A DNA stretch of 64,000 bases from Lachnospiraceae bacterium. Lineage in GTDB: Bacteria; Bacillota; Clostridia; Lachnospirales; Lachnospiraceae. The stretch covers positions 22,992-86,991 of the forward strand of contig JAFUXG010000055.1 in NCBI GenBank assembly GCA_017470935.1, written 5' to 3'. Below the pieces are notes generated by a model. It was not told where the DNA came from. It was given only the letters and a program-made list of their open reading frames with translations, and searched no databases. Within the stretch, counting starts at the first letter, position 1. Every line of letters begins with the position of its first letter. A program made the position numbers and the translations under genes. This document shows, one piece after another, positions 2,097 through 52,344 of this stretch.

Positions 2097-2236
2097 TATG
2101 TATGATACGGGAGCTGTTACATTGTATATCACTATTTAGTAACAATCCCTTTTCATAAATAAATGATTGCATGGTCCTTCGCAGGGTTTATGCATGATAC
2201 AACATTATTTTACATTATATTAAGGAGGAATATGTA

Positions 2237-2890
2237 ATGAAAAAGAAATTTCTTGCATTAGCACTTGTATCTGCAATGACAATGGCTTTAGTAGCGTGTG
2301 GTTCAGATACAGCAGCAACAAGCGAGTCTGCTGATTCTAATGATGCAGCTGCATCAGAAGAGGTTGTAGCAGATGCTGACACAGAGGATGCAGCAACAGA
2401 TGGTGAGGCAGGCTTTACCGAGATTCCTATCTGGGAGGATGCGGAGGTTGGTTTCCTTAACCTTTCAGCAGTTTATTTCCAGCCTGTTCCTATGCAGAAT
2501 GAGACACAGAACATCTCGGCTGAGGACTTCGATCTTCACCTTGAGGCTGATATCGCTGCATTGGAGAATAATCTTGGCTATGGTGTTGGCGACTGGGTAC
2601 CTTATCTTACAGTTGATTATGATGTAATCGGTTCTGACGGAAATTCAGCAGCTTCAGGTACATTCATGACAATGGCAGCTTCTGATGGTCCTCATTATGG
2701 TGCTAACATTAAGCTTCCTAACGCTGATACATACAGTGTTAAGATCACAATCCACAGCCCTGGTGAGAATGGTTACTTAATCCACTCTGATTCAGAGACA
2801 GGTCCGGGTGGATTGTTAGAGGATTACTTCGGTGATGGCCCTCTTACATATACATTTGAGGGATGGGATTATACACCACAGGAGTGGTAA
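2237..2890 (+). CDS. P19/Tpd-family extracytoplasmic iron(copper)-binding lipoprotein
   Basis: Lipobox LVACGS. The motifs HLEADIAAL ... PYLTVDY ... DGPHYGANIKLP closely follow the Campylobacter P19 family signature. Strong SD AAGGAGG. Confidence 0.85.
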   Translation: MKKKFLALALVSAMTMALVACGSDTAATSESADSNDAAASEEVVADADTEDAATDGEAGFTEIPIWEDAEVGFLNLSAVYFQPVPMQNETQNISAEDFDLHLEADIAALENNLGYGVGDWVPYLTVDYDVIGSDGNSAASGTFMTMAASDGPHYGANIKLPNADTYSVKITIHSPGENGYLIHSDSETGPGGLLEDYFGDGPLTYTFEGWDYTPQEW

Positions 2891-3050
2891 GAGATACCGG
2901 TATAATACGGTCATATGGTCAACTTTTCTATATGTGATATAGGATAATTGACGTTACAATTATGCATTAAGCTACACTGCGGTGCGCCCTTATAGGCGTA
3001 CCGCATTAGTGCGTTAAAAAAGAAGGTTATAAACAGGAGGTGTCAGTGCG

Positions 3051-4304
3051 ATGCTCTCGTACTTGATCAAAACAACAATAAGCTTGCTTATGGCAGTAAT
3101 ATTGCTTGGAATAACGGCTGCATACACTAAGCTGGCTGCAAAAGCTTATGCTAAGAAAATTGTCATAACGGGAACGGTCTTAGGTTTGATTGCTTCCATA
3201 CTCATGTCTGTTGCAAAAAATGCAACAAGCAAGATAGATACAAGTGCGTGGAATCTGGGTATATTTACGGTTGCATTGATAGCATATGCACTGTTACTCA
3301 TTTTTTCTGTTAAAGCAGTGAGCAGTAGGCTAGGCAAAGCTGCAGATGTTATTTTTTGGTGTATGACATCAGTTATTGCTGCTGCTTCACTATTTTATAC
3401 ACTGCCTGATGTATGGGCATATCCATATCAGATGGTTTCAGCAGGACAGAGTATGATCTCAACAGATTTTCTCTATAAAATGATTGGTTTTTTATTTGGC
3501 TGGATTTTAATGATAGTTGTATTTTTTGCGTCGTATAAATGTGTGCTTCGTCTAAGTGAAAAAGGAGCGCTCATATTATTAAAGCTGTCATATCTTATCA
3601 ATGCATTGAGGCAGGCATCGGTTATTCTTTCCATCATACTGGCGAAGAGAATAATTAAGTCAAACCATACCTTATTTACGATTGCGAAATATACATCTAA
3701 TTACAGTAACGGATTTATATATTTGTCCATATTATTGATATTTGTTGTGACGGTTATTTTATGGGTAAGAAGTATGAATGTGAATGAACCATATTCCAAC
3801 CCTGCGCAGCACAGAAAGATCAAAGCAAAGTGGAGGAGCATAAGGCGATGGGCGGCAACGGCTGTCATAGCATTTATCCTATGCATTGCTAATATGACTG
3901 TTATTAATGCCTATGATAATAAGGTAGTGGAGCTTTCTCCTGTGGAGGATGCAAGAGTTGATAACGGTAATGTATATGTTACCTTTGAACAGGTGGCGGA
4001 CGGACATCTTCACCGCTTTGCATATAATACGGAAGGTGGAGTGGAGATAAGATTCATTGTGATCAAAAAGCCTAACTCTTCATCGTATGGTATCGGTCTT
4101 GACGCATGTGATATATGCGGTGAAACGGGTTATTATGAGAAGGATGGCCAGGTGGTATGTAAGCTTTGTGATGTGGTCATGAATATAAGTACCATCGGAT
4201 TCAAGGGAGGCTGTAATCCTATAGTTATTCCGTATGAAATTGAGAACGGAGAGATTATTGTGCCAATTGAGGGGTTGGTAGAATATGAGAGTGAATTCAG
4301 ATAA
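3051..4304 (+). CDS. Polytopic membrane protein with C-terminal DUF2318-type Cys-rich domain (FTR1/P19-associated)
   Basis: About 8 hydrophobic helices followed by a soluble domain with CDICGETGYYEKDGQVVCKLCD. Same position as the DUF2318 gene in ftr1-p19 loci. Confidence 0.7.
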   Translation: MLSYLIKTTISLLMAVILLGITAAYTKLAAKAYAKKIVITGTVLGLIASILMSVAKNATSKIDTSAWNLGIFTVALIAYALLLIFSVKAVSSRLGKAADVIFWCMTSVIAAASLFYTLPDVWAYPYQMVSAGQSMISTDFLYKMIGFLFGWILMIVVFFASYKCVLRLSEKGALILLKLSYLINALRQASVILSIILAKRIIKSNHTLFTIAKYTSNYSNGFIYLSILLIFVVTVILWVRSMNVNEPYSNPAQHRKIKAKWRSIRRWAATAVIAFILCIANMTVINAYDNKVVELSPVEDARVDNGNVYVTFEQVADGHLHRFAYNTEGGVEIRFIVIKKPNSSSYGIGLDACDICGETGYYEKDGQVVCKLCDVVMNISTIGFKGGCNPIVIPYEIENGEIIVPIEGLVEYESEFR

Positions 4305-8605: not shown

Positions 8606-9154
8606 ATGAGAAAATGGAACGCAGTCTTAAGTATGTGCATTATTGTTCTTTTTCTGGTACATGCCATTGCAGGAGGCTTTCAGCTTATGGGGCTGATACC
8701 GGGAGGCTCTGCTTTGCTGGGAATCCTGGCGTGGGTAATGCTTGTGCTGATTTTGATACATGCTATTATTGGGATTAAGCTTACTGCAGACAGCCTGGCT
8801 GCAAGCAGGAAGGCGGGAGCGTCATATTTTAAGGATAATAAATTGTTTTGGGCAAGACGTATAAGCGGTTTTGCCATTTTTGTATTTATACTGTTTCACG
8901 TACTGCTGTTTCTGGGAAAGAATGACGGGGTGTACCGTTTGAATTATTTTGGAGCACTACAGCTTGCGACACAGCTTCTATTGGTTTTGTCTGTTGCAGC
9001 TCATGTAATCACCAATATCAATCCGATGCTTATATCATTTGGGTTAAAGCGCCTTAAGGAATATGCGGTGGACATTCTTATTGTAATTTCAGGTATCCTG
9101 CTTTTTATAGGGGTTTCCTTTGTGATATATTATATAAGATGGAATGTTTTGTGA
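8606..9154 (+). CDS. Succinate dehydrogenase/fumarate reductase membrane anchor, dihaem cytochrome b-like (5 TM)
   Basis: Start taken at the ATG at 8606 after SD GAGGAG. Five predicted helices, with His in helices 1, 2, 3 and 4. Directly precedes the flavoprotein and Fe-S subunits. Confidence 0.55.
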   Translation: MRKWNAVLSMCIIVLFLVHAIAGGFQLMGLIPGGSALLGILAWVMLVLILIHAIIGIKLTADSLAASRKAGASYFKDNKLFWARRISGFAIFVFILFHVLLFLGKNDGVYRLNYFGALQLATQLLLVLSVAAHVITNINPMLISFGLKRLKEYAVDILIVISGILLFIGVSFVIYYIRWNVL

Positions 9155-9282
9155 TACATTATAAAATGATGAAAAGGTGTCGGCTTCGTGATTACACGAA
9201 AAAGCAACAATTATCTTAAAAGCACATGGAGCTGCAGGCGACATGACGAAAGAGTGATCTTAAAGCCGGGCAGGTGATGAAT

Positions 9283-10977
9283 ATGAAAAGAGTTAATATA
9301 ATTGGCGCAGGTCTTGCAGGGCTGTCTGCTGCCATAACATTAGCAGAACAGGGCTTTGCCTGTAACTTAATATCACTGCAGAATTCTGAGAGGGCGCAGT
9401 CTGTGCTCGCTGAGGGCGGGATTAATGCGGCATTGGATTTTATAGATGGAGGTAAGGATCTTCCCGCTGAGCATTATAAGGATACCATGAGTGGAGGATG
9501 TGATCTGGCAGACCCTGAAGCCGTAAGGGGACTTACCTGTGATGCGCCTGAAATTGTGAGAGGCTTAGCGGTGCTTGGAGTTCCCTTTCACATGAAGGAT
9601 GGAAAGCTTGTTCTTAGAAGCTTTGGAGGGCAGAAGAACAAGAGGACAGCATACGCAAAGAGCAGTACAGGAAAGGTTATTGTACATGCATTGGTGGATC
9701 TGGTCAGGAAATATGAATCGGAGGGGTTGGTCAGACGATATCCCCACCATGAGTTTGTGAGGCTTCTGTTGTCTCAAAACAAGGGAAAAGCGGCATGTGA
9801 TGGAGTAAGGATTATAGACAGGCATACCGGTAAAATGTATGATTGCAGCGGCGTGGTGGTTTTGGCTACAGGCGGTATGAATGGATTGTTTCCGGGCATG
9901 ACCACCGGAACCACATCTAACAGCGGAGATGTGACAGCCACGGTATTTGCACAGGGGGTATACCTGTCAAATCTTGAAATGATACAGTACCACCCCACAA
10001 CTATCGGTATATCAGGAAAAAGGCTTCTTGTTACGGAGGCTGCAAGGGGTGAGGGCGGACGACTTTGCGTGAAAAGAAATGGCCGGTGGTGGTACTTCAT
10101 GGAGGAAATTTATCCGGAGTTAAAAAATCTTATGCCAAGGGATGTGGTATCCAGGGAGATGTATAATGTTGTGAGAAGGCCGGACTGTGAGGATCAGGTC
10201 TATCTTGATATGACGGATCTGTCTGATGAGATATGGAAGACAAAGCTTCCGGATATGAGGAAGGAATTGATAGATTATCTGGGTATAGATCCCAAGAGAG
10301 AGATGATACCGGTAGAGCCGGGAATTCATTACTTTATGGCAGGAATTGATGTGGATATATACCATAGAACTAATGTGGATAAGCTGTATGCTGCCGGTGA
10401 ATGTACCAGTCAATATCATGGCGCAAACAGACTGGGTGGCAATTCCATGTTAGGTGCCATCAGAGGTGGTAATATGGCAGCAAAGCATATTATGAAAGAT
10501 ACTGATTGGGCGAAATACATATATGCTGAGCGGATGAAGGAGCAGGAAAACGGTAAGGATATAAGTGGCAAAGAATCAGCAGGAGAGAAGCGTATAATTC
10601 CAAAAATCGACTGGGAAGAAAATATAATAGAAGTTACTGAGAACAATAACGACAATGAGACATATTTAAATGCGGCTTCTCCTGCATTTATTAAGGAAGA
10701 AGGTCAAATATTATTAGAAGGACTCGGCATTATACGTAGTGAGGGTGTAATGCAGGAGGCATATGACAAACTGGCTAAGTTAGAGAAGAAGGCTGACTGC
10801 TGCAGAGAAAATAGCCGTGTGATGCTCGGGAAGGCCATGCTTTTGTCTGCATTGTTCAGAAAGGAGAGCAGGGGAGCACATTTTCGTGAGGATTATCCTG
10901 AAAGAAAAAATGAATATAAGAAAATGACCCTTGCCAGACTGTCAGAGGGACAAGTATTAATTCAGTTGAAGGAATAG
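9283..10977 (+). CDS. Succinate dehydrogenase/fumarate reductase-type flavoprotein subunit (FAD-binding)
   Basis: N-terminal IIGAGLAGLSAA dinucleotide fold. QYHPT and ESRGAHFREDYP motifs typical of the SdhA/FrdA/NadB family. Start ambiguous between 9274, 9277 and 9283. Confidence 0.8.
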   Translation: MKRVNIIGAGLAGLSAAITLAEQGFACNLISLQNSERAQSVLAEGGINAALDFIDGGKDLPAEHYKDTMSGGCDLADPEAVRGLTCDAPEIVRGLAVLGVPFHMKDGKLVLRSFGGQKNKRTAYAKSSTGKVIVHALVDLVRKYESEGLVRRYPHHEFVRLLLSQNKGKAACDGVRIIDRHTGKMYDCSGVVVLATGGMNGLFPGMTTGTTSNSGDVTATVFAQGVYLSNLEMIQYHPTTIGISGKRLLVTEAARGEGGRLCVKRNGRWWYFMEEIYPELKNLMPRDVVSREMYNVVRRPDCEDQVYLDMTDLSDEIWKTKLPDMRKELIDYLGIDPKREMIPVEPGIHYFMAGIDVDIYHRTNVDKLYAAGECTSQYHGANRLGGNSMLGAIRGGNMAAKHIMKDTDWAKYIYAERMKEQENGKDISGKESAGEKRIIPKIDWEENIIEVTENNNDNETYLNAASPAFIKEEGQILLEGLGIIRSEGVMQEAYDKLAKLEKKADCCRENSRVMLGKAMLLSALFRKESRGAHFREDYPERKNEYKKMTLARLSEGQVLIQLKE

Positions 10978-15384: not shown

Positions 15385-15753
15385 ATGAATATTCAGGATT
15401 TTATCATAGTTGTAATACTGGTAATAATATTGGTGCCTGCCATAAGAAGCACTATAACCCACATGAAGGGTGAGGGCGAGTGCTGTGGCGGACCCAAGGA
15501 AAAGCCTGTTAAGAAAAAGCTTCCGGGTAAGCCCATACATAAGCTTATAGTTCACATAGAGGGAATGCATTGCGATAACTGCAAGAACAGGGTAGAGAAG
15601 CATCTTGATGAGCTTGACGGGGTTATCGCCAAGGTGAAGCTTTCAAGAAAGCTTGCTGAGGTATCACTTTATGAAGAGGTGGATGAGGCGCTTATTAAGG
15701 ATACCATTGAGAAGCTGGATTTTGAGGTTACGGGTATAGAAACGGTGGGATAG
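15385..15753 (+). CDS. Membrane-anchored heavy-metal-associated (HMA) domain protein
   Basis: N-terminal TM plus GECCGG, then an HMA fold with GMHCDNC (MxCxxC). SD GAGGTGA. Confidence 0.75.
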   Translation: MNIQDFIIVVILVIILVPAIRSTITHMKGEGECCGGPKEKPVKKKLPGKPIHKLIVHIEGMHCDNCKNRVEKHLDELDGVIAKVKLSRKLAEVSLYEEVDEALIKDTIEKLDFEVTGIETVG

Positions 15754-15863
15754 CTGAAAGCAAAGCTTTTAACATGTGAGAATGTACCAAGTGCTTCTAA
15801 TGATGTAGTCATCGTAACGTTAAAAACATATAATAACATAAAGAAGAATATAATGGACATTCA

Positions 15864-15912
15864 GCAGATCGGATTTGTGGATGAAATACCACATATCCGG
15901 TCTGCTTTTATT
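15864..15912 (+). terminator. Rho-independent terminator after the HMA gene
   Basis: GCAGATCGGATTTGTGG / CCACATATCCGGTCTGC stem (one G-U pair, one mismatch), 8-nt loop, followed by TTTTATTATT. Confidence 0.7.
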
Positions 15913-15977
15913 ATTATCGGTACAGACATTTTAATTAAGTTAATTGATTGAAATATATATTTTTTTAATGGGTGTTA

Positions 15978-15986
15978 TGTTATAAT
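15978..15986 (+). promoter_or_regulatory. Extended -10 element TGTTATAAT (possible promoter of the giant ORF)
   Basis: TG-N-TATAAT read directly. No good -35. About 200 nt upstream of the 16186 start. Confidence 0.3.
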
Positions 15987-16185
15987 ACCTAAAGGAAAAT
16001 ATTTTGTTTTTTTATTTTGAAATGACACAGTTTGTCCGTGGTATGTGCTATTATGAAAACAAGCATTTTATTGTAATCCATAATGGTGGCATTAGCAGAA
16101 TTAGGGTGATAAATAAGATGACACATTATAGCCGGATAATCAGGTTGAGTTGATGTTTTATTGTGAAGGAGGTATACATTTCATT

Positions 16186-19100
16186 ATGAAAAAAAAGATT
16201 TACGCAGTAAAAAAAGGGGAGAAAACCGGTATATATAACGATTGGAAAAAGTGTGAGAAACAGATAAAAGGATTTCCCGGGGCTCTGTATAGCAGTTTTG
16301 AGTACATGACAGAGCTTGAAGATGAGGATGAAAATAAGGAGGACAGCCTTAGACATGCTTTTATGCTTGCGGAAGAATACATGAATGATGACAGCATAGG
16401 AGGGTTAAAGCTTGTTTATCAGGGCAAAGATAAGGAATATATCCAGGAAGATAGCTGGAAGAAGAAGGGCTTTCTGCCCTTTGGAGAGACAATTTCTGAT
16501 GATGCAGACAATTCGCAGGGAGAGGGTGAAAATGATGTTCCCTCTGATGAACCCCAGATATACAACTACGATCATACGAAGGAAGAAGAAGTGTATGGCA
16601 TGCTTAACTTACCCGAAGAATACCAGCAAAATGAACCGTGGGTTGAGATTCTTCTGTGTGTTGTAGGCGATAATTATGCAGGAACTTTTGTGGGCAGATA
16701 TAATGTGGCTGCATTATATACTGCTTTGCTTGAGTTTGTATTTAACCCAAGACATATTTTGATAAGCTTTATTAACATATATAATGAGATGAGGGAAATG
16801 AAGCTTTTACAGCCCGAAATTGTATCAGGCTCAGACTGGGTTAAAAATGCATTAGAAGTATGGGAGGATTCAGACGAGTACCGTGAGCTGAAACAACGTT
16901 TTGAAAAGTATGACATGAGGCTTATCGACTTTGATGAGCTCTTAGTAAACTGTAGATTCAATGCAGTAGAAGGAAGTAAAGAAAATCGGAATACGAATAG
17001 CTCCACATACCAAATTATGGAGAAATATATCAAACAGGGAGGTCACTCTCTGCTTGACTTGTATCGGGAAATGACAGAGAATAGTGCATACCGCGTGGAG
17101 CTTATGAAGGTGTCCGGTTCTTTTGTTAATCCCGATCTGAAGAAGAGTGATCATATTACAAAAACAAATGTTGCAACATCTTTACTTAATGTAAAATTGC
17201 CTTCAATTGTTGAAAGAAAACGCGAGCTAGATGAGTTGCGAAGTAAACTTTTTGAAAATATTTATGGGCAGGATATTGCCATTGATGAATTTTTATCCGG
17301 TCTATTCTATGCAGGATTAGAACCTGATAGAAGTGGAAATGGTCCAAAAGCGTCATATCTGTTCATAGGGCCTCCTGGAGTGGGGAAGACATATCTTGCA
17401 AAAAGTATTGCTGATCTGCTGGGCGTAGAGGCAAGGCTTTACCAAATGAATGAATATATGGATGATGAACACAGCGCGTCAGATTTGATAGGGCATGATT
17501 ATACATGGAAGGATTCACATGAGGGGTCATTGACCGGGTTTGTAAAAACACATCCAAATGCAGTTTTGATTTTTGATGAGATCGAAAAGGCATGTAGTTC
17601 CGTAAAGCAATTGTTCCTATCTATTCTTGAAGGCGGATTTTTGACTGACAAGTATAGTGATGAGAAAATCAAATTTTCAGATACGATATGCATATTTACT
17701 ACAAATGCAGGAAGACAGTTTTTTGAGGAGAGATGGGATGAAAACTTGTCTTCCATTCCTGAAAATACGATCATAGATGCCATAAAAAATGACAAGGGCA
17801 GAGATGGAAAACCGATTATGCCCCCGGAGCTTCTTTCAAGGCTGCAAAAAGGAAAAGTCATTTTATTTAACCATATTAATGAAAAGAGTTTGATTCCAGT
17901 TGTGAAGAAAAGCATCGGAGAAGGGAAAAAATTAGTCGAGGAGGGACTTCAAATCACATATGAGTACGATGAAGAAACCTTACCGTATCTGTTTTTGTAC
18001 AGCATGGGAAATCGATTAGATGCCCGAATCGCCTCTGAACGAAGCAAGAAATTTGTGATGGAATCTGTTTATCGGCTTATGCAGTCTGAGAAAGCGAAAG
18101 AAAGAATCAAGAATGTAAAGACAACATTAGCATTAGATGGGGATGTTGCAAAGCGTTACTTCTGGGAAGCAGATAAAAGAGAAAAGAGGAATCTGATTGT
18201 CGTATGTGGGAATAAGGATAGAAAGGGGAATTATAGTCTTTTAGAAAAGATGTCAGATAAATCCGTATGCAGCCTACATTATGTATATCAGTTTGAAAAT
18301 AGCGAAACAAAAGAAAGTGATAAAAACCACAATATTAGGACTTTGCTTAGGACCAAAGAAATCGATGGCATATTGATTGATTTTTATTACAATAAAGAGG
18401 GTGGGGAATACCGTCAGAGACAGCAGGGAAAGGCAGTTTATGAAAGCCTTCTGTTAAATGATTCCGTTCCGGCGCAGATATACCGCTGGCTTCAGGAGCA
18501 ACCAAAAACTCCACCAATATATGCCATATCCTTTGGAAATGAATACCGTGCTTCGGAGAAAAAGGAGTTGTTGGAAAATGGAATCGAGGATATCATTTCT
18601 CTTCCAAAGAGTGAGTATGACCTTAGCACTTTTGTGAAAGAGTGTTTCCTGCAGGAGCAAATGCAAAAGCTTCAAAAGAAAGGCCGAAGGCTTGATTATA
18701 ATATATGTATGCTTGAACAAAAGGAAGAAGGGACCATAGAGCTGGAAGTCGGAAGCTTCAGGGAGGTCAATGACTTCGGCACAGATGCTGATGTTGTTAT
18801 GATTAATGATAAAAACCGTCCGGGAGTGACGTTTAACGATGTGATCGGAAACAGGCAGGCGGTCAATGAATTACGGAAGTTCAAGATATTTTTGGAGAAA
18901 CCGGATTGGTTCAGAAAAAGCGGGGCAAAGGTGTCAAGGGGTATTTTGATGCTTGGCGCGCCGGGTACGGGAAAAACTATGCTGGCAAAGGCTCTTGCAA
19001 ATGAGGCTGACTGTCCCTTTATATCCTGTACCGGTGTTGAGTTGTTGAAAAATGAAGGGAATCGTCAAATGCAAACAGGTGACGGGGTAGTGAAGGACAT

Positions 19101-20796
19101 TCATACTGTATTTTCACTTGCAAGAAAATACGCGCCATCCATTATATTTATCGATGAGATTGATGTGATTGCAAAAGACCGTATCAAGCATGATGGTGAT
19201 CCCAGAATTATTAATCAGCTTTTGACGGAAATGGATGGATTTGAAACAGATCCTTCCAGACCGGTATTCGTAATCGCTGCGACTAATTACGACCCGGAAA
19301 TTTTAGACGAAGCGTTGTTGCGCAGATTTGGAAATACGATCTTAATCAAAAAACCGGGATTAAATAGCCGAACATTATTCATCAAGAAAAAGATTGAAGA
19401 AATGTCAAAAGAAAAATTGGCTTTTGATTTGAGTGGGCTTAGTGATGCTGATGTAGAGAAGTTTGCTAGGGTTATGAGTGGGCAGAGTCTGGCGGAGATT
19501 GAAAATGTCATTAACTACACTATGTCGCAGGCGGTCATGAAACGCCAGGAAGTAGATTATGCCTTCCTATATAATTGTTTTGAGGAATATTATTATGGAC
19601 TGGAAACTAAGTCAGATGATGGTACGAAAGAATTTGAGCAAGTCACATATCATGAGGCAGGTCATGCACTGATGGGATTCTTATCCGGAAAGAAGTTCTA
19701 CCCGGATTATGCTACAGTGGTTTCCCGTGGTGGGTTTGGCGGTTATGTAGATTTTAATATTGTGCATAGGAGGAAAGAAGATTTCCTTTCACACATTCGT
19801 ATTTCATTAGCAGGAAGGGCTGCCGAGGTTGCGGCATATGGCGAGAATAGGGGTGTTACAATAGGACTGGGTACTGATCTGAAGTATGCGACATCTTTTG
19901 CTAAGGAATATCTTACTTGTTATGCGATGGAAGATGATTTTATGGTTTCATATTTAGATATTAAGGACATGGAAAAATTCATGACATCGCCCATGGGTGA
20001 AAAAATATATAAAAGGATCAATGAGATACTGGTGGAACAAATGTCGGAAGCTAAGAAACTATTGGAGGAACATCGGGATGCACTGGATGCATTACAAAAG
20101 GAGCTGTATCAAAAGAGGCGTTTAGAGTATGATGATATGAGAGAGATATTGAAACCATATATATCATTAGAAGAAGACAGCGAGAGAAACGATAATGTAA
20201 AGGATGACAAGAAGGATAGCAATAAGAAAAACAAGAGAGAAGGTAACGATAAAGCAGATAATGAGAAAGGAGATAGGATGAAAAAGGCAGATAGTGGTGA
20301 TGAATTGAGATATCTTGTTTATACCGACGGAGGTGCCACCCCCAATCCCGGTGTCGGTGGTTACGGAGTGGTTATCATTGACAAAATGACAGGAGAGAGA
20401 AGAGAGTACAAACAGGGATATGTGGAAACCACCAACAATCGAATGGAACTGAGAGGTGCAATCAGGGCTCTTGAGGAGCTTTCAAAGAAGGATGGGAAAA
20501 TCCTGCTGAAAAGTGATAGCGACTATTTAAGAAGTGGAATCACCGAATGGATTAATAACTGGATAAAAAATGACTGGAGGAACAGCAGAAAAAAACCTGT
20601 GGAAAATTCGGATCTATGGAAAAAATTATCAGAATTGATAGAGGGGAAGGATATAGAGTTTGAATGGGTAAAGGGTCATGACGATAATAATAAAGTGAAC
20701 GATCCTGAAGATACTGCTGAGAACAATTGCTGTGATATTCTTTCGAAAGAAGCGCGTGATGAGAAATTGATAGAGGATGAAGGGTATGTGAAATAA
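16186..20796 (+). CDS. Giant multidomain fusion: RNase H1-type hybrid-binding domain / ClpA-B-like AAA+ / classic AAA+ with M41 (FtsH-like) Zn-protease / RNase HI
   Basis: Uninterrupted ORF. ATG at 16186 follows SD AAGGAGG. HBD: KIYAVKKGEKTGIYNDWKKCEKQIKGFPGA. AAA+ no. 1: GPPGVGKT (17368-17391) and LIFDEIEKA (17566-17592). AAA+ no. 2: GAPGTGKT (18955-18978) and IIFIDEID (19141-19164). Protease: HEAGH (19651-19665). RNase HI: TDGG, NNRMEL, KSDSDY, KGH, CD. No TM segment. Confidence 0.85.
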   Translation: MKKKIYAVKKGEKTGIYNDWKKCEKQIKGFPGALYSSFEYMTELEDEDENKEDSLRHAFMLAEEYMNDDSIGGLKLVYQGKDKEYIQEDSWKKKGFLPFGETISDDADNSQGEGENDVPSDEPQIYNYDHTKEEEVYGMLNLPEEYQQNEPWVEILLCVVGDNYAGTFVGRYNVAALYTALLEFVFNPRHILISFINIYNEMREMKLLQPEIVSGSDWVKNALEVWEDSDEYRELKQRFEKYDMRLIDFDELLVNCRFNAVEGSKENRNTNSSTYQIMEKYIKQGGHSLLDLYREMTENSAYRVELMKVSGSFVNPDLKKSDHITKTNVATSLLNVKLPSIVERKRELDELRSKLFENIYGQDIAIDEFLSGLFYAGLEPDRSGNGPKASYLFIGPPGVGKTYLAKSIADLLGVEARLYQMNEYMDDEHSASDLIGHDYTWKDSHEGSLTGFVKTHPNAVLIFDEIEKACSSVKQLFLSILEGGFLTDKYSDEKIKFSDTICIFTTNAGRQFFEERWDENLSSIPENTIIDAIKNDKGRDGKPIMPPELLSRLQKGKVILFNHINEKSLIPVVKKSIGEGKKLVEEGLQITYEYDEETLPYLFLYSMGNRLDARIASERSKKFVMESVYRLMQSEKAKERIKNVKTTLALDGDVAKRYFWEADKREKRNLIVVCGNKDRKGNYSLLEKMSDKSVCSLHYVYQFENSETKESDKNHNIRTLLRTKEIDGILIDFYYNKEGGEYRQRQQGKAVYESLLLNDSVPAQIYRWLQEQPKTPPIYAISFGNEYRASEKKELLENGIEDIISLPKSEYDLSTFVKECFLQEQMQKLQKKGRRLDYNICMLEQKEEGTIELEVGSFREVNDFGTDADVVMINDKNRPGVTFNDVIGNRQAVNELRKFKIFLEKPDWFRKSGAKVSRGILMLGAPGTGKTMLAKALANEADCPFISCTGVELLKNEGNRQMQTGDGVVKDIHTVFSLARKYAPSIIFIDEIDVIAKDRIKHDGDPRIINQLLTEMDGFETDPSRPVFVIAATNYDPEILDEALLRRFGNTILIKKPGLNSRTLFIKKKIEEMSKEKLAFDLSGLSDADVEKFARVMSGQSLAEIENVINYTMSQAVMKRQEVDYAFLYNCFEEYYYGLETKSDDGTKEFEQVTYHEAGHALMGFLSGKKFYPDYATVVSRGGFGGYVDFNIVHRRKEDFLSHIRISLAGRAAEVAAYGENRGVTIGLGTDLKYATSFAKEYLTCYAMEDDFMVSYLDIKDMEKFMTSPMGEKIYKRINEILVEQMSEAKKLLEEHRDALDALQKELYQKRRLEYDDMREILKPYISLEEDSERNDNVKDDKKDSNKKNKREGNDKADNEKGDRMKKADSGDELRYLVYTDGGATPNPGVGGYGVVIIDKMTGERREYKQGYVETTNNRMELRGAIRALEELSKKDGKILLKSDSDYLRSGITEWINNWIKNDWRNSRKKPVENSDLWKKLSELIEGKDIEFEWVKGHDDNNKVNDPEDTAENNCCDILSKEARDEKLIEDEGYVK

Positions 20797-20808
20797 TTAA
20801 AGCATGCG

Positions 20809-21198
20809 ATGCAGAAAGGGGAAATAATATTGAGCAGAAGGCAACATGATAGGTGGTATATCTCGGATATAGATGAATCGCATGACACCTGGTTAAATGG
20901 CGACAAAAAAGATAAACCCCAGGAATCATGGGGAATGCAATTATGGGAGATTGCACAGAAGATGGAAGCGGCAATTCTTATAATCCGTAAAAAGGATGAG
21001 GATGATAAATCCAAAAAGTCTGCAGCTAACATTCTCCGCGAACTTCTACAGGAATGTATATGGGATGAGAATTTGAGTGATCTGACCTCTATCTACAAAG
21101 ACAAGGAAGCGGACAATGTTTTGGGATATGATACCGTTGCTATTTCCACCTTTGTTGGACAAATGGTGGCGGAATATCCAAAGCCCTCAAATCGTTGA
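20809..21198 (+). CDS. Hypothetical protein, small partner ORF of the giant fusion gene
   Basis: 129 codons starting 13 nt after the giant ORF stop. An alternative TTG start at 20830 is preceded by SD AAAGGGG. No recognisable motif. Confidence 0.55.
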   Translation: MQKGEIILSRRQHDRWYISDIDESHDTWLNGDKKDKPQESWGMQLWEIAQKMEAAILIIRKKDEDDKSKKSAANILRELLQECIWDENLSDLTSIYKDKEADNVLGYDTVAISTFVGQMVAEYPKPSNR

Positions 21199-21275: not shown

Positions 21276-21291
21276 GTTAGTAACATATAAC
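21276..21291. promoter_or_regulatory. GTTAG-N6-(A)TAAC palindrome, degenerate site E
   Basis: GTTAGTAACATATAAC has one mismatch in the right arm. Upstream of the P-type ATPase operon. Confidence 0.35.
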
Positions 21292-21306
21292 TATATATAG
21301 TACAAG

Positions 21307-21341
21307 CTAATTATACATAGATGAATCTAATTATACATAGA
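21307..21341. repeat. Two direct 15-bp repeats CTAATTATACATAGA spaced 20 bp centre to centre
   Basis: Identical copies at 21307-21321 and 21327-21341, in the upstream region of 21399. Confidence 0.6.
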
Positions 21342-21398: not shown

Positions 21399-21707
21399 AT
21401 GTTTAAAGCTAAGACAATATGTCCTCTTATTGGAGGATTTCTTTTAGGTACAGCCGGAGTGAAGATATTAAGCAGTAAGGATGCAAAGAAGGTATATACC
21501 CATGTGACTGCTGCCGTACTCCGCGGCAAGGATGAGGTGATGAAGACAGCAACTGCCATTAAAGAAAACTGTGAAGATATTAAGGCAGATGCTGATGATA
21601 TCAATGAGAAGCGCCGTGAAGAGGAAAGGCAGAGGGAGATCGAGGACGCTAAGGCTCTTCTCCAGGAAACAAAGAATAAGATCGAAGAGCTGGAGAAAGA
21701 GGAGTAA
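21399..21707 (+). CDS. Small protein with N-terminal hydrophobic segment and charged coiled-coil tail
   Basis: SD AGGAGG. CPLIGGFLLGTAGV, then a K/E/D-rich helix. Precedes the P-type ATPase. Confidence 0.6.
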   Translation: MFKAKTICPLIGGFLLGTAGVKILSSKDAKKVYTHVTAAVLRGKDEVMKTATAIKENCEDIKADADDINEKRREEERQREIEDAKALLQETKNKIEELEKEE

Positions 21708-21789
21708 GCTGCATAGAAATAGATCAATTACTGTTGTAAGCAGTGTAGGATGAGACAAGAATTGGTTTTGTGAATTTGGTAGGAGTCCC

Positions 21790-23862
21790 ATGAAGTGTAA
21801 AATATTACATGAATCGAAAAACAGAATAAGAGTTCATTTTTACAGGAACTATATGACATGTGAAGAGGCAGATAAATTGGAATGTTATCTGCTTTCTCTT
21901 TCGTATGTTGAAGAGGTTAAGGTAAATGAGAGGACATCTGACGCAACAATAAGGTATGATGATGGCAGGAGAGACGAACTGATAAGCGACCTGTCACATT
22001 TTGATCTGAAATGCACAGAGGTTACAGTTTTCGAAAGCACAGGAAGGCAGATGACACATGACTATCAGGACAGACTGTTCTATCATGTTGCAAGAAGAGC
22101 AATAAGCAGGTGGCTGTTCCCGCTTCCTATAAGGAAGGTGATTGCTGTATTCAAAGCATTGCCATACATAAAAGAGGGTCTTAACAGTCTTCTTAGAGGA
22201 AAGCTTTCGGTGTCAGTGCTTGATGCGGCCAGCATTCTAGTATCCATAATAAGAAGAGATTTTGACACTGCCGGTAGTGTAATGTTCCTGCTTGGCGTGG
22301 GAGATATAATGGATGAATGGACCAGAAAGAAGTCGGTAAATGATCTTGCAAGAGCAATGGCATTAAATGTTGACAGAGTCTGGACCTTGTCTGATTCTGG
22401 AGAAGAGGTTTTAGAGGATATCAATAAGGTGGATGTGGGAGATACGATAATAGTAAGAACCGGCAGCATGATCCCCCTTGACGGAGAAGTGATTGAAGGA
22501 GATGCTTCTGTTAACCAGGCATCAATAACCGGTGAAGGTCTTCCTGTACATAAGACAGTGTCAGGATATGTATATGCGGGAACAGTTGTTGAGGATGGAG
22601 AACTTAAGATCAGTGTCAGAAGGACTGTGGGAACAGGACAGTATGACCGTATTGCAAAGATGATCGAGGAGTCCGAAAAGCTGAAATCCGAGACGGAGGA
22701 AAAGGCCTTCAGAATGGCAGACAGGCTGGTGCCCTATACCTTTGGTGCGACGCTTCTTACATATCTGCTCACGGGAGATGTGAACAGAGCGACCTCAATT
22801 TTGATGGTAGATTTCTGCTGTGCACTTAAGCTGTCAATGCCTATTGCTGTGCTCTCCGCAATGAGAGAGGCGGGACAGAAGCATATTTCGGTCAAGGGCG
22901 GAAAGTTCCTTGAAGCAGTTGCTAATGCGGATACCATCGTGCTGGATAAGACAGGAACAATTACCTATGCATGTCCAACATTTAAGGATATAGTCACCTT
23001 TGACGGAGCCGATAAGGATGAATCCTTAAGGCTTGCGGCATGTCTTGAGGAGCATTATCCTCACAGCATGGCTAATGCAGTGGTTAAGGCTGCAGCAGAG
23101 AGAAAGCTTATTCATGAGGAAAAGCATACAAAGGTGGAGTACGTGGTGGCTCACGGAATTGCCAGCACTATAGACGGAGAGAAGGTTGTTATAGGAAGCT
23201 ATCATTTTGTCTTTGAGGACGAGGGCTGTGTGATAGACGAAGCGGAGATGGACAAATTCAATAATCTTTCTGATGAGTATTCTCATCTATATATGGCGAT
23301 TGCAGGCCGCGTCAAGGCAGCCATAATGATAGAGGATCCTGTAAAGAAGGAGGCTTCTGAGGTCATACAGGAATTAAAGAGTTTAGGACTTAAGGTGGTA
23401 ATGCTTACAGGAGACAGCAGCCGTGTGGCAAGAAGGGTTGCCGGAGAGCTTGGTGTGGATGATTACAAGGATCAGGTGCTTCCTGAGGATAAGGCATTAT
23501 ATATAGAGAAGGAACAGGCAGCGGGACGCAAATGCATTATGACAGGTGACGGTGTCAATGATTCACCGGCACTTTCCAAAGCTGATGTGGGAATTGCCAT
23601 TAACAGCGGTGCTGCCATTGCCAGAGAGGTGGCGGATATAATGATATCCGAGGATGACCTTAAGGCGCTCGTTACTCTTCGGAGATTGAGTACTGCACTG
23701 GTGGCAAGGACAAAGGGTAACTATGTGAAGATAGTATCCTTTAATAGCTTCTTAATACTTATGGGCGCTCTTGGATTATTCCAGCCTACGCTAACGGCAC
23801 TGTTGCATAACGGTTCCACAATCGCCATAAGTATGAAATCAATGACTAATCTGCTGGATTGA
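21790..23862 (+). CDS. Heavy-metal-type (P1B-like) P-type ATPase with atypical FCC transmembrane motif and a Cys-less HMA-like N-terminus
   Basis: DKTGTIT phosphorylation motif and TGDGVNDSPAL hinge. FCC (22813-21) aligns with the usual CPC position, within VDFCCALKLSMP. Confidence 0.9.
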   Translation: MKCKILHESKNRIRVHFYRNYMTCEEADKLECYLLSLSYVEEVKVNERTSDATIRYDDGRRDELISDLSHFDLKCTEVTVFESTGRQMTHDYQDRLFYHVARRAISRWLFPLPIRKVIAVFKALPYIKEGLNSLLRGKLSVSVLDAASILVSIIRRDFDTAGSVMFLLGVGDIMDEWTRKKSVNDLARAMALNVDRVWTLSDSGEEVLEDINKVDVGDTIIVRTGSMIPLDGEVIEGDASVNQASITGEGLPVHKTVSGYVYAGTVVEDGELKISVRRTVGTGQYDRIAKMIEESEKLKSETEEKAFRMADRLVPYTFGATLLTYLLTGDVNRATSILMVDFCCALKLSMPIAVLSAMREAGQKHISVKGGKFLEAVANADTIVLDKTGTITYACPTFKDIVTFDGADKDESLRLAACLEEHYPHSMANAVVKAAAERKLIHEEKHTKVEYVVAHGIASTIDGEKVVIGSYHFVFEDEGCVIDEAEMDKFNNLSDEYSHLYMAIAGRVKAAIMIEDPVKKEASEVIQELKSLGLKVVMLTGDSSRVARRVAGELGVDDYKDQVLPEDKALYIEKEQAAGRKCIMTGDGVNDSPALSKADVGIAINSGAAIAREVADIMISEDDLKALVTLRRLSTALVARTKGNYVKIVSFNSFLILMGALGLFQPTLTALLHNGSTIAISMKSMTNLLD

Positions 23863-49958: not shown

Positions 49959-50927
49959 TTAGCTTACATTCACCACTATTTTTCCGTTTATTTTTCCTTC
50001 ATCTAATGATATACATGCTTCTTTAATGTTTTTGAAATCATAAATCTCACCGATCAAAGGCTTTAAGGCTTTTTCATCCATAAAAGTGAAAATGTCCTGT
50101 ATCATTTCCCGATAGGGATAATTGCTATAAAATCCGGTAAGATATACCCCGTTCGGGATATCCTTGATGGGATCAAAATGGTTCCATTCATATACTTTAC
50201 CAAGTACTCCTGTATTACATACTATCACGCCTTCGTTAACAGATTGCATTGTATCCTTAAGGGTCTTAATTCCAATAAGCTCTAATACCTTTGTGACAGT
50301 ATCGGTTTTACCTTTAAGGCTTCCGTCATCTAATATACATTCATCCGCTCCGGCAGATTTAATGAGATCAAGTTTGGATTCTTTATGTGTTGTTGCTATT
50401 ACTGTACATCCCAAAGCTTTTGCAAGCTGAATTGCCGCATAACCAAGGGCGCATGTGGCTCCACGAATCAGGAGAGTGTCATCAGGTATAAGTTTAAGAC
50501 ACTGGAATAGCGATCCCCATGCAGTAAAATAGGTTTCCGGAACAGCCGCCATTTCATGCCATGGAAGACTGCTTTTTACAGCAAAAACATGATGTGTGGG
50601 GAGAAGCGCATATTCTGCATAACTTCCGTTAAAGCTTCTTCCCATGCCGCCCATTAAAGCGACAATTTTATCTCCGGTTAAAAAGCTGCTGTCAGATGGA
50701 TCTGCAATTTCTCCAACACATTCAATTCCCGGAATAATAGGCTTGCTGATATAATCACTTGCTATCTCGAATTCCCGAAGAAGCTGTTCAGAGTGGTTCA
50801 TTCCAAATGCTTTTACTTTAACAAGCACCCATCCGGGTTTGACTTGCGGGATAGGTACATCGGATAGAACTACATCACTTCCTTTTGTAGGTTTATCAAT
50901 AATAACTGCTTTCATTGTATTATTCAT
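49959..50927 (-). CDS. Medium-chain (zinc-type/quinone oxidoreductase-like) dehydrogenase
   Basis: Start at the ATG (MNNTMKAVII) after SD AGAAAGGAA. GWVLVKVKAFGMNHSE and IRGATCALGYAAIQLAKALG Rossmann region. Confidence 0.8.
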   Translation of the reverse strand: MNNTMKAVIIDKPTKGSDVVLSDVPIPQVKPGWVLVKVKAFGMNHSEQLLREFEIASDYISKPIIPGIECVGEIADPSDSSFLTGDKIVALMGGMGRSFNGSYAEYALLPTHHVFAVKSSLPWHEMAAVPETYFTAWGSLFQCLKLIPDDTLLIRGATCALGYAAIQLAKALGCTVIATTHKESKLDLIKSAGADECILDDGSLKGKTDTVTKVLELIGIKTLKDTMQSVNEGVIVCNTGVLGKVYEWNHFDPIKDIPNGVYLTGFYSNYPYREMIQDIFTFMDEKALKPLIGEIYDFKNIKEACISLDEGKINGKIVVNVS

Positions 50928-51007
50928 AAAAGTTGATTCCTTTCTGCTACACATATAATCGAAAGTACTTAGTAACACTATTCGAACAGGTGTCTGCCTT
51001 TTGAGTT

Positions 51008-52096
51008 TCATAGTGAAATCAGTTCATCATGGCATGGACTCGTGTCGATCCAGCACTGTGGGTCTTCAGCGTAGAAATCCCCATTTGTTCCCTTGGCAAC
51101 TGCCGGACAACCTCTGCACCAGGGGAGGAGACGACATTTGGAACATTTACTGAATTTATCAAACTCACGGTAAGTCTCCATACTTCCTACCCAGATATCA
51201 GCCAGTTTATCTTCATACACATTACCTACTCTGCTGTCAGATACCCGTCTGCAGGCATAGACATCGCCGGAAGGCAGAATTGTGAGATGACTGTTTCCGC
51301 AATGGCAGCCGTCATAGATCATTCCTTCCTCGGCAGCTTCAGGTATATGAAATTTACCGGTTTCATAGTCATGCAAAGTCCATAAATGATCCTTCTTGTT
51401 AAAATAGGTATCGCATCCTTGTTTTTCATATTCTGCGAACTTCTTATCACACTTATCTAACAGTGCACGATACTCTTCAGCGGTCATACTTGTATCAAGT
51501 TCTCCGCCGCTTGGAACATATCTTGAAAAAGCAAAGACGTTAGCACCTGCGGCAACTGCTTCGTCGATGATTCCCGGTATCTCATTCATGTTGGTTTTTG
51601 ACACGGTTGTCATTATGGCTGTTCTTATTCCGGCATTTCTCAAGCAGGCAAGTTTTTTCAATGTGCAGTCAAATGATCCCGGTTTTCTGAACCAGTCATG
51701 AGTTTCCCTCAGACCATCTATGGACATCTGATATCTTTCACATCCGTATGATTTAAGTCGTTTGCATACTTCTTCATTCAGATGAAATGGATTCCCCAAT
51801 ATCGTAAATAATATGCCATGCTCGTGAATCAATTTCAAAAGCCTCCAGAAATCAGGATGAAGAATGGGATCGCCGCCTGTAAGATAGAAGTAGGGTCTGC
51901 AGTTATATGTATCACAAAAGTCAAGACAGTTGTAAAATGTCTTTTTCATCTCTTCCCAGTTCATGGTCTCTAACGGCTTACAGTTATCAGCGGAAAAAAT
52001 GTAGCAGTGTTTACAGCGCTGGTCGCAGTCATCGGTTATGTGCCATTGAAATGAAAATGTAAATTTTTTATTTGGTTTTTGAGTATTTGTATTCAT
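51008..52096 (-). CDS. Radical SAM/SPASM-domain peptide maturase (ranthipeptide/thioether-type)
   Basis: CDQRCKHCY (CxxxCxxC) about 25 residues from the start. TGGDP. C-terminal SPASM cysteines CHCGNS...YACRR...CSKCRLLPWCRGCP. Start at the ATG after SD AAAGGAAG. Confidence 0.85.
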   Translation of the reverse strand: MNTNTQKPNKKFTFSFQWHITDDCDQRCKHCYIFSADNCKPLETMNWEEMKKTFYNCLDFCDTYNCRPYFYLTGGDPILHPDFWRLLKLIHEHGILFTILGNPFHLNEEVCKRLKSYGCERYQMSIDGLRETHDWFRKPGSFDCTLKKLACLRNAGIRTAIMTTVSKTNMNEIPGIIDEAVAAGANVFAFSRYVPSGGELDTSMTAEEYRALLDKCDKKFAEYEKQGCDTYFNKKDHLWTLHDYETGKFHIPEAAEEGMIYDGCHCGNSHLTILPSGDVYACRRVSDSRVGNVYEDKLADIWVGSMETYREFDKFSKCSKCRLLPWCRGCPAVAKGTNGDFYAEDPQCWIDTSPCHDELISL

Positions 52097-52112
52097 ATAT
52101 ATACTTCCTTTT

Positions 52113-52344
52113 GGAGCAGTTCTTGTCGAGCAAGGCGAGACATTAGAACTGCCCATATGCAGGCACCAGATGGTTCAAGTTCGAAGAACGCAGAAGCATC
52201 TGGTAGTGCCGAGCCATTAGGAGCAGTTCTTGTCGAGCAAAGCGAGATATTAGAACTGCCCATATGCAGGCACCAGATGGTTCAAGTTCGAAGAACGCAG
52301 AAGCATCTGGTAGTGCCGAGCCATTAGGAGCAGTTCTTGTCGAG
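52113..52344. repeat. 107-bp tandem repeat, 2.2 copies, between the RiPP precursor and the maturase
   Basis: Copies start at 52113, 52220 and 52327 (partial). I saw 2 mismatches between the full copies. Each unit contains two hairpins. Confidence 0.9.

Follow-up and report, generated by a model that had tools for sequence, protein, structure and literature searches.

FtsH and its relatives YME1 and AFG3L2 couple a classic AAA+ module directly to an M41 metallopeptidase, and bacterial proteases of this type have, to our knowledge, been described only as membrane-anchored, single-ring enzymes. A different ring, D2, is found in the Hsp100/Clp proteins ClpA, ClpB and ClpC, and RNase H1 enzymes of the eukaryotic and Bacillus halodurans type join a Cauli_VI-type RNA:DNA hybrid-binding domain (HBD) to a type-1 RNase H. 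Related modules have been placed in conflict settings. A viroplasmin plus RNase H module on the anti-phage toxins RnlA/LsoA (RNase LS) was proposed to target RNA-DNA duplexes of invaders (PMC3710099), and FtsH-containing MoxR-vWA ternary conflict systems of other phyla include proteins with two FtsH-type modules, the first inactive, and need MoxR and vWA (Kaur et al. 2020; PMC7159879). Here we analyze a two-gene cassette within 64,000 nucleotides of DNA from a Lachnospiraceae bacterium (assembly GCA_017470935.1, contig JAFUXG010000055.1, positions 22,992 to 86,991 of the forward strand; the whole stretch is called the window, and positions refer to it). Its larger gene, the giant gene, encodes a two-ring AAA+ metalloprotease with an HBD and an RNase HI; the smaller encodes a partner protein. 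Every domain is of a known type and the working is AAA+-protease-like, but the combination is undescribed in the searched literature: a soluble two-ring M41 protease that contains a receiver-like insert and is joined by HBD, RNase H and a partner domain also carried by coupling proteins. The claim of novelty made in a preliminary description of this DNA therefore stands, given that the literature search, NCBIfam equivalogs, solved structures and PADLOC systems returned no description of, or match for, the whole architecture.

The giant gene occupies 16186-20796 on the + strand, counted from an ATG; a TTG lies further upstream in the same frame, at 16150. We take the ATG as the start, and the product as 1536 amino acids (aa), because a GGAGG ribosome-binding site at 16169-16173 and the N-termini of homologues (MKKKIYAVK) fit it. 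Five Pfam domains over threshold agree with the single modular frame of 1536 codons recognized beforehand, and the motifs then placed in it (GPPGVGKT, LIFDEIEKA, GAPGTGKT, IIFIDEID, HEAGH and the Asp codon at 19876-19878) all map to the residues expected. From the N-terminus, the chain comprises the RNase H1-type HBD (aa 1-50, 16186-16335; PF01693 over aa 4-42, E=3e-15), an N-region (aa 51-340, 16336-17205), a ClpA/ClpB-D2-like AAA+ module (aa 341-640, 17206-18105; AAA_2 over aa 387-554, E=1e-35), a receiver-like domain (aa 641-860, 18106-18765), an FtsH-like classic AAA+ module (aa 861-1140, 18766-19605; AAA over aa 920-1054, E=1e-43), an M41 zinc peptidase (aa 1141-1330, 19606-20175; Peptidase_M41 over aa 1149-1321, E=5e-23), an in-frame Lys/Asp-rich linker of 42 residues (aa 1331-1372, 20176-20301) and an RNase HI domain (aa 1373-1536, 20302-20796 with the stop codon; RNase_H over aa 1376-1523, E=4e-35). 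The partner gene (20809-21198, 129 aa, possibly 122 aa) follows on the same strand and is homologous to genes directly downstream of relatives of the giant gene.

It is very probable that the giant protein is a soluble AAA+ zinc metalloprotease in which ClpA/B-D2-like and FtsH-like tiers enclose a receiver-like domain. The D2-like module has Walker A (GPPGVGKT) at aa 395-402 (17368-17391) and LIFDEIEKA at aa 461-469, with Walker B at ~17572-17586; it aligns with ClpA D2 across the large and small subdomains (6uqe, E=1e-27) and has the DAR sensor-2 motif. The FtsH-like module has Walker A (GAPGTGKT) at aa 924-931 (18955-18978), IIFIDEID at aa 986-993 (19141-19164; D990/E991) and Arg fingers R1046/R1047, in a second region of homology that reads LLRRF, not LLRPGRFD. 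Together with the peptidase it aligns end to end with Aquifex FtsH (4ww0, E=2e-59). HEAGH lies at aa 1156-1160 (19651-19665), and the third zinc ligand is D1231 (19876-19878). Degenerate catalytic motifs in homologues had been named beforehand as part of what would count against the proposal; both Walker A and B pairs, sensor-1, the Arg fingers, HExGH and the third-ligand Asp (H1156, E1157, H1160 and D1231 here) are invariant among 22 diverse relatives. The family is predicted to be built from active enzymes because of this invariance. As the preliminary description noted, there is no membrane anchor: a hydrophobic segment is absent from the giant protein (best 19-residue Kyte-Doolittle mean 1.22), which on hydropathy is soluble.

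The two rings differ at their pores. An aromatic residue (Trp, Tyr or Phe) is present in the D2-like pore loop of all 22 aligned members, although the motif is not G-Y-V-G; in the window protein the loop reads x-W-K. The pore-1 loop of the FtsH-like ring reads M-Q-T-G after a six-residue insertion, versus M-F-V-G of FtsH, and has lost its aromatic. That residue is also gone in most aligned HBD-bearing relatives (P0051, P0056, P0058, P0063 and P0101), P0006-P0019 retain Lys-Tyr, and other family members have canonical K-Y-V-G-type pore-1 loops in the FtsH-like ring. We infer that the D2-like ring is the main translocating ring, since its pore aromatic is kept while that of the FtsH-like ring is lost.

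Between the rings, the region of about 200 aa that had been left unassigned proves to be a receiver-like domain (aa 641-860), conserved across the family. A 20-member profile of this domain (the Mid profile) searched against solved structures matched almost exclusively response-regulator receivers (NtrC1 receiver, 1zy2, E=1.4e-4). Searched singly, 7 of the 20 members match Pfam Response_reg, and no other Pfam family recurs. Asp732 (18379-18381), the sole invariant acidic residue of the domain, aligns with the phospho-acceptor Asp of NtrC1 at the end of strand 3. The N-region, by comparison, first prolongs the HBD by a short conserved stretch and then runs through a disordered, acidic linker into an all-helical N-domain, ordered from ~aa 150 to 310 (AlphaFold model with a predicted local distance difference test score, pLDDT, of 71.7). 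It is conserved among those HBD-bearing relatives that we call type A and has no match in Pfam, among PDB sequences by profile search or among PDB folds by Foldseek (best E=0.56 and 0.77 for the models of partner and N-domain).

An assembly chimera, raised beforehand as an objection, is excluded because 8 separately assembled contigs encode the identical 1536-aa protein in the same gene context, and because the RNase H fusion is present in relatives, with the C-terminal RNase H kept in the 80%- and 76%-identical homologues. Three short contigs from other samples (L149, L150 and L151) carry an identical upstream gene with an HMA domain and end ~90-115 nt into the giant gene; their ends may mean strain heterogeneity or an assembly broken by repeated HBD sequence.

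The protein belongs to a small family. A word-based search returned 260 homologues of 1,050-1,900 aa, mostly from metagenome-assembled genomes of Lachnospiraceae and named in databases only as ‘viroplasmin family protein’, ‘AAA family ATPase’ or ‘FtsH’. An exhaustive HMMER search of 1.84 billion representatives with the family-specific Mid profile gave 488 clusters (50% identity) at E<=1e-3 and 268 at E<=1e-10. Nearly all members are from gut or rumen Clostridia; hosts with representative genomes are Roseburia, Mediterraneibacter, Acetatifactor, Faecalimonas, Ruminococcus and other Clostridia. The core of D2-like AAA+, receiver-like domain, AAA+ and M41 is invariant, and the termini vary: among the best 120 of the 260 homologues, ~50 have an N-terminal HBD, 7 have an HBD after M41, ~55 have none, 6 have a third AAA+ module and 2 have Clp_N. 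One N-terminus (P0113) consists of a fused Ser/Thr kinase with TPR and WD40-like repeats, and P0115 shares the repeat region with no kinase match. Two Comamonadaceae proteins found in the searches were rejected as family members since they lack the Mid domain. Their loci, in Tepidicella (L057:8051-12381) and another Comamonadaceae (L086:4436-8765), have Clp-D2-like and FtsH/M41-like matches 2.4 kb apart on one strand, and may represent an independent, different architecture in Betaproteobacteria.

In the window's branch, the protease core is repeatedly tied, judging by domain and gene associations, to enzymes of RNA:DNA hybrids. The fused RNase HI domain aligns with E. coli RnhA with D10, E48, D70, H124 and D134 all present, as expected from the complete D-E-D-H-D set reported earlier, and has the basic protrusion too; it narrowly misses the NCBIfam RNase HI cut-off (153.8 bits versus 160). 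In the HBD, the Tyr and Trp are kept, and the position that we take to be the Lys-Lys pair of the human domain is Ser-Ser here and has one Arg in relatives. As a C-terminal fusion the RNase HI is rare, being confined to the window protein and two of its near relatives (one is that of locus L004), 3 among the best 120 homologues. Elsewhere it is a neighbor. In L236, a 155-aa RNase HI gene, 40% identical to the window RNase H domain, overlaps the stop codon of the protease P0017 by 8 nt. The P0127 locus (L232/L233) encodes, in order, an HBD+partner protein (224 aa), the giant protein and, in an overlapping gene, an HBD+RNase H protein (254 aa). At L003, whose giant protein P0003 is 73% identical to that of the window, the order is giant, partner plus RNase H-like protein, small receiver-like protein, second RNase H protein and second giant. 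Three loci (L140 with P0072, L145 with P0101 and L235 with P0058) have an RNase HII-like gene directly upstream of the giant gene. Those of L140 and L145 score 52-60 bits against rnhB/rnhC cut-offs of 123-161, and because these scores are so far under the cut-offs we regard the genes as locus-specific paralogues rather than housekeeping copies.

Overall, an intact RNase H-type module (RNase HI or divergent HII-like; fused, overlapping or adjacent) occurs at 8 of 13 distinct HBD-branch loci, with a remnant at one more, and at 0 of 11 non-HBD family loci, as searched with RNase H and partner hidden Markov models derived from the positive loci themselves and with several of the non-HBD contigs short. 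The hypergeometric chance of such a split is ~0.002. A short RNase HII-like fragment (L142:11978-12076, - strand; E=2e-5) just downstream of a giant gene otherwise without an RNase H partner is probably a remnant. The HBD, for its part, has been recruited at either terminus of the giant protein in different relatives. The link to RNA:DNA hybrids suggested by the preliminary description is thus upheld by the RNase H-type modules and by the HBD at both ends, and we consider a hybrid-linked function likely.

This pattern bears on how the window protein arose. The preliminary description was right that the HBD and RNase H lie ~1,300 residues apart (~1,320 here, with the ATPases and protease between them), but the separation is not explained by a protease inserted into an HBD-RNase H enzyme. 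Because the RNase H of relatives sits in separate, overlapping genes, the window architecture is best read as a gene fusion, in which an RNase H gene that usually stands apart downstream, translationally coupled, was joined to that of an HBD-bearing protease. The Lys/Asp-rich linker probably derives from the former gene junction, since relatives have at this place an RNase H gene that overlaps the end of the protease gene. A mere accident, either recent read-through into the next RNase H gene with no integrated function or an assembly or annotation artefact, would fit the rarity of the fusion (3/120) and the commonness of separate genes with overlapping stop and start codons. We consider this very improbable: the sequence is identical on 8 independent contigs, the fusion is kept at 100%, 80% and 76% identity with intact RNase H catalytic residues, the 42-residue linker is in frame, and the gene association is conserved whether fused or not.

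The second gene of the cassette starts 13 nt past the stop codon of the first, as described earlier; the accompanying view of it as an orphan without motif does not hold. Its product includes a conserved four-helix domain that recurs in giant proteins, HBD proteins and coupling proteins. A TTG at 20830 has a better ribosome-binding site and may be the true start, and the NCBI product is 122 aa. In the model of the 129-aa form, residues 1-32 are a disordered tail and residues 45-122 (nt 20941-21174) a four-helix bundle with pLDDT ~90. Foldseek found nothing significant for the fold in the PDB (best E=0.56 and 0.77 for the partner and N-domain models) or BFVD, and the PDB profile search was empty. 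Directly downstream of the 73%-identical relative lies a gene whose product matches the partner at its N-terminus (51% identity, E=2e-37) and continues into an RNase H-like domain. The gene immediately following a 38%-identical relative has the match in its middle (41% identity, E=1e-19), preceded by an HBD. A profile search recovered 33 proteins, mostly HBD+partner proteins of ~224 aa. In 10 of the 120 homologues (among them those of L014, L015 and L145 and the second L236 paralogue), the domain is built into the giant protein itself, after the HBD and ahead of the first ATPase. HBD-bearing giants are thus of two kinds: type A, including that of the window, with the helical N-domain, and type B, with the partner domain in that position. 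Separate or fused, the partner domain is present at 8 of 13 HBD-branch loci. Five of the seven loci with type-A giants hold it; of the other two, the L235 contig stops right behind the gene, and L142 lacks one within 8 kb.

Outside the family, three type IV coupling proteins (T4SS-DNA_transf, TraG-D_C; 953-1320 aa) carry the partner domain in their C-terminal region, at 43-44% identity over ~80 residues. These matches come from three large IMG/VR contigs of 135-222 kb (L237:5760-8618, L238:4695-8654 and L239:4749-8654), and none of the three coupling proteins has a giant, HBD or RNase H module closer than 8 kb. Their neighbors include a topoisomerase, an RNA ligase/kinase pair, a Mom-like protein and an AAA protein. 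The partner was not found in INPHARED phages or PLSDB plasmids. We infer that the domain is a protein-interaction module.

By its gene associations, the protease of the window's branch is one component of a modular system with an HBD, an RNase H (type 1 or divergent type 2), the ~80-aa partner and often a small receiver-like protein. The modules are shuffled among polypeptides locus by locus, and the window has the most condensed form, with all but the partner in one chain. The small receiver-like protein (127-136 aa, 34-78% mutual identity) stands beside giants at L139:7584-7979, L145:6647-7057, L003:14998-15381 and L232:7733-7984; it weakly matches the PADLOC candidate PDC-M60B (E=9e-7) and is absent from the window. 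Other relatives vary further. At L140, a kinase-Sel1 gene (2210-3658) and an FHA gene (9706-10098) flank the giant gene, and FliG_C-domain genes follow the giant gene at L140 and L234. The 76%-identical relative at L004 is without an HBD, and a 400-aa open reading frame (8809-10011) overlaps its start by 11 nt. Tandem giant paralogues are common: those of L236 (7001-10978 and 13109-16690) are of types A and B, and those of L003 (9566-13597 and 17361-22054) are both type A, the second called as two genes (557 + 1011 aa). Such pairs may form hetero-oligomers or a two-protease system.

A DarT-like domain of ADP-ribosyltransferase fold follows the C-terminal HBD directly in P0072 (L140:7844-8512), P0077, P0079, P0080, P0086 and P0112, with Pfam matches over threshold and a match to 7omu (E=1.9e-4). 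The catalytic Glu position is Glu in 1 of these 6. Because 5 of the 6 are without it, the tail is more likely a non-catalytic, perhaps single-stranded-DNA-binding, module than a toxin, and its value as evidence for a toxic effector is weakened.

The genomic settings of relatives are variable. Those at 73-80% identity have unrelated gene neighborhoods, and neighbors include two DNA methylases and NOV_C (L003), an integrase with PDDEXK (L145), a transposase (L232) and a PLD-like gene (L236). Upstream of the L004 giant are a resolvase, two zinc-ribbon proteins and DUF1848. The giants of L004 and L236 lie just downstream of mfd. This proximity could hint at a role in transcription conflict, or the site could simply be an integration hot spot; the latter fits better, because everything between mfd and the giant gene differs in the two loci, one of which has the resolvase.

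In the window itself, the AT-rich intergenic region upstream of the giant gene (15754-16185, + strand) has, besides the ribosome-binding site, a promoter-like site at 15806-15834 that is a consensus match only, and an Rfam scan of the cassette flanks gave no RNA element. Downstream, a DUF6110 gene and a P-type ATPase gene (21399-23862) form a pair conserved in ~60 metagenomic loci (46-76% identity); the gene with the HMA domain (15385-15753) lies outside this conserved neighborhood. The ~60 loci lack the giant cassette, but do not provide a clean empty site because upstream synteny is not conserved. Nor was an empty-site allele found from the other side, as the upstream HMA gene occurs only on contigs that bear the cassette or are broken at the start of the giant gene. 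An imperfect 36-nt direct repeat (72% identity; 15819-15854 and 21276-21311) lies in the AT-rich spacers either side of the cassette. It is weak, and could be an insertion trace or merely similar promoter sequence. The only sizeable minus-strand genes of the 64-kb window (49959-52156) coincide with a local dip in GC skew, and the remaining genes are co-oriented.

How might such a protein work? We suggest that the giant protein would assemble as a hexamer, which flexibly tethered HBDs could dock on RNA:DNA hybrids such as primers or R-loops. The D2-like ring, by its aromatic pore loop, would grip and unfold a hybrid-bound protein, and the unfolded chain would pass through the FtsH-like ring, predicted to be ATPase-competent and without a pore aromatic, to the M41 chamber. 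The tethered RNase HI would cleave the RNA strand of the hybrid. The receiver-like domain may control whether the second ring assembles or is active, in the manner of NtrC-type proteins, where a receiver precedes an AAA+ module, and the partner domain may be an adaptor or regulator that chooses the protein target.

What is the hybrid-directed activity for? We propose an anti-mobile-element role, the control or restriction of RNA-primed replication or transfer of mobile-element DNA, because the partner domain recurs on coupling proteins and relatives lie in variable regions bearing mobile genes. Taken by itself this role falls a little short of an even chance; for the full proposal, combining molecular identity, hybrid-linked function and the anti-mobile-element role, we see the balance as even. 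In a more specific and more tentative version, the cassette would be a compact new immune system that senses hybrids on incoming or replicating mobile DNA, for example during RNA-primed complementary-strand synthesis after conjugation or phage entry. The RNase H would then destroy the primer and the two-ring metalloprotease the attached mobile-element proteins, with the partner as specificity module and its copy on coupling proteins as either the recognized target interface or a counter-defence decoy.

Several observations weigh against these proposals. Without the pore-1 aromatic in the FtsH-like ring, threading into the M41 chamber may be inefficient or different. The acidic pair, Thr/Ser and Lys of receivers are not conserved, only the Asp and one Gly being invariant, and the window copy has no significant Pfam match, which is why we call the domain receiver-like only. 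Hybrid binding is not assured because the window HBD is without the two DNA-contacting Lys of the human domain. The 0/11 count at non-HBD loci could miss divergent versions of RNase H, given the origin of the models and the short contigs. The DarT-like tails of some relatives are mostly without the catalytic Glu. Around the window locus there are only transporter and metal-handling genes, with no defence or mobile-element neighbors. Within species the locus looks stable, sets of 8, 16 and 24 contigs each having one context in common. PADLOC 2.0 (IetAS, PDC-M37, TRIP13/CBASS and others) detected no complete system, only matches to ATPase domains (IetA, PDC-M37B), which also disposes of the idea that this is an already known defence system; the partner had no match, and accessory proteins of relatives had generic kinase or receiver matches only. 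A full-length family member was not found in IMG/VR (among the matches listed), in INPHARED phages or in PLSDB plasmids, so we do not regard the giant gene as a phage or plasmid gene. The preliminary description's suggestion of a defence-like system is thus sustained as regards an undescribed family, while the defence role itself stays conjectural for a window without such neighbors.

The main rival is accessory genome maintenance, in which the cassette would clear host proteins stalled on hybrids (RNA polymerase at R-loops or head-on conflicts, or primase on primers) and then degrade the RNA, by analogy with Cdc48/SPRTN-type clearance in eukaryotes, where Cdc48/p97 with SPRTN/Wss1 clears DNA-bound proteins. 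It would account well for the window, where the locus has no defence or mobile-element neighbors and is stable over many contigs of one species, for the nearly canonical score of the fused RNase HI (153.8 versus 160 bits), for the lack of any PADLOC system match and of members in phage and plasmid collections, and for the two relatives just downstream of mfd, whose product removes stalled RNA polymerase. It is harder to reconcile with a small, patchy family (268-488 clusters) that has unrelated neighborhoods even at 73-80% identity, tandem paralogues, locus-specific divergent RNase HII copies, methylase, integrase, transposase or resolvase genes beside several loci, and a partner domain in common with conjugative coupling proteins; the mfd-proximal loci, moreover, better fit an integration hot spot. 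We rate maintenance as a possible but rather unlikely explanation. A toxin-antitoxin or abortive-infection system, in which the nuclease would be the toxic effector and the partner an inhibitor degraded by the protease on a trigger, seems improbable. AAA+ proteases often degrade antitoxins, the small gene lies in the same operon 13 nt downstream, its product has a modelled disordered segment (residues 1-32) that could act as a degron, the layout is one of sensor, ATPase and effector, and a DarT-like domain replaces RNase H in some relatives. Unlike antitoxins, however, the partner forms the internal N-domain of type-B proteases and elsewhere follows an HBD, or precedes an RNase H-like domain, within one chain. 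RNase HI is an enzyme of housekeeping type and no known toxin, 5 of the 6 DarT-like tails are without the catalytic Glu, and no toxin-antitoxin or abortive-infection model matched.

A soluble FtsH-type protease that embeds a receiver-like domain and has a second ring of Clp type is, as far as we know, a new enzyme form, and would serve as a model of how two dissimilar AAA+ rings work together with an integral protease. Its steady coupling to HBD and RNase H suggests RNA:DNA-hybrid-directed proteolysis, an activity not yet described in bacteria. Should the cassette be an immune system, it would represent a new sensing principle (hybrids) and a new effector pair (protease and RNase H) in abundant Firmicutes of the human gut and rumen. 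Should it serve genome maintenance instead, it would be a bacterial counterpart of the eukaryotic clearance of nucleic-acid-bound proteins. In either case, the partner domain common to coupling proteins points to a concrete interaction, and is a handle for experiment.

Comparison with described systems places the cassette near several of them and within none. Its second ring and peptidase are arranged as in FtsH, YME1 and AFG3L2, with the classic AAA+ followed directly by M41, HExxH and a third Asp ligand, and Aquifex FtsH is the best solved match. In contrast to FtsH, the giant protein has no transmembrane anchor, has an extra upstream Clp-type ring and receiver-like domain and has lost the pore-1 aromatic; it scores 273 bits against the TIGR01241 cut-off of 600 and 173 against 1008 for PRK10733. 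Its first ring resembles D2 of ClpA, ClpB and ClpC in Walker A/B, sensor-2 and the aromatic pore loop. Unlike Hsp100/Clp proteins, the window protein lacks D1, the Clp N-domain and the M-domain, and its protease is a covalent M41 rather than ClpP; scores are 140 bits for ClpA (cut-off 993) and 98 for ClpB (cut-off 1232). A few distant relatives of the giant protein do carry Clp_N. The equivalog scores and the absence of the anchor, D1 and N-domain together rule out a canonical FtsH or ClpB paralogue. As in NtrC-type regulators, a receiver-like domain lies directly N-terminal of an AAA+ module, the NtrC1 receiver being the best solved match of the Mid profile, but here the AAA+ belongs to the classic/FtsH clade rather than to that of the sigma-54 activators, and the locus has no cognate histidine kinase. 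HBD-RNase H1 enzymes share the Cauli_VI/HBD and the type-1 RNase H with its D-E-D-H-D set; their short linker is absent here, and in most relatives the HBD belongs to a protease with no fused RNase H.

Among conflict systems, RnlA/LsoA provides a precedent for an HBD/RNase H module in such a setting (PMC3710099), yet there is no HEPN domain here and no RnlB/Dmd-type antitoxin, and the effector machinery is an AAA+ protease. In the MoxR-vWA-FtsH systems, likewise predicted to serve in conflicts, the FtsH-type AAA+ protein has two ATPase modules (PMC7159879). In contrast, no MoxR or vWA gene lies within 10 kb of the cassette, and its first module is of Clp-D2 type with intact Walker A/B. The classic AAA+ module resembles IetA of the anti-plasmid/phage system IetAS (PADLOC E=3e-38; NCBIfam IteA, 101.8 bits), and both systems join an ATPase to a protease, but the ATPase domain alone matches (cut-off 510 bits), there is no IetS subtilase, and the protease is a fused M41. 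With regard to DarTG, the window has no DarT-like domain, and no macrodomain gene was seen in the annotated neighborhoods of two loci with DarT-like tails, L140 and L234. If our proposal is right, a parallel may instead be drawn with eukaryotic Cdc48/p97 and SPRTN/Wss1: a different nucleic-acid cue and a non-homologous protease and adaptors, but similarly a two-ring unfoldase and a metalloprotease that would act together on proteins bound to nucleic acid.

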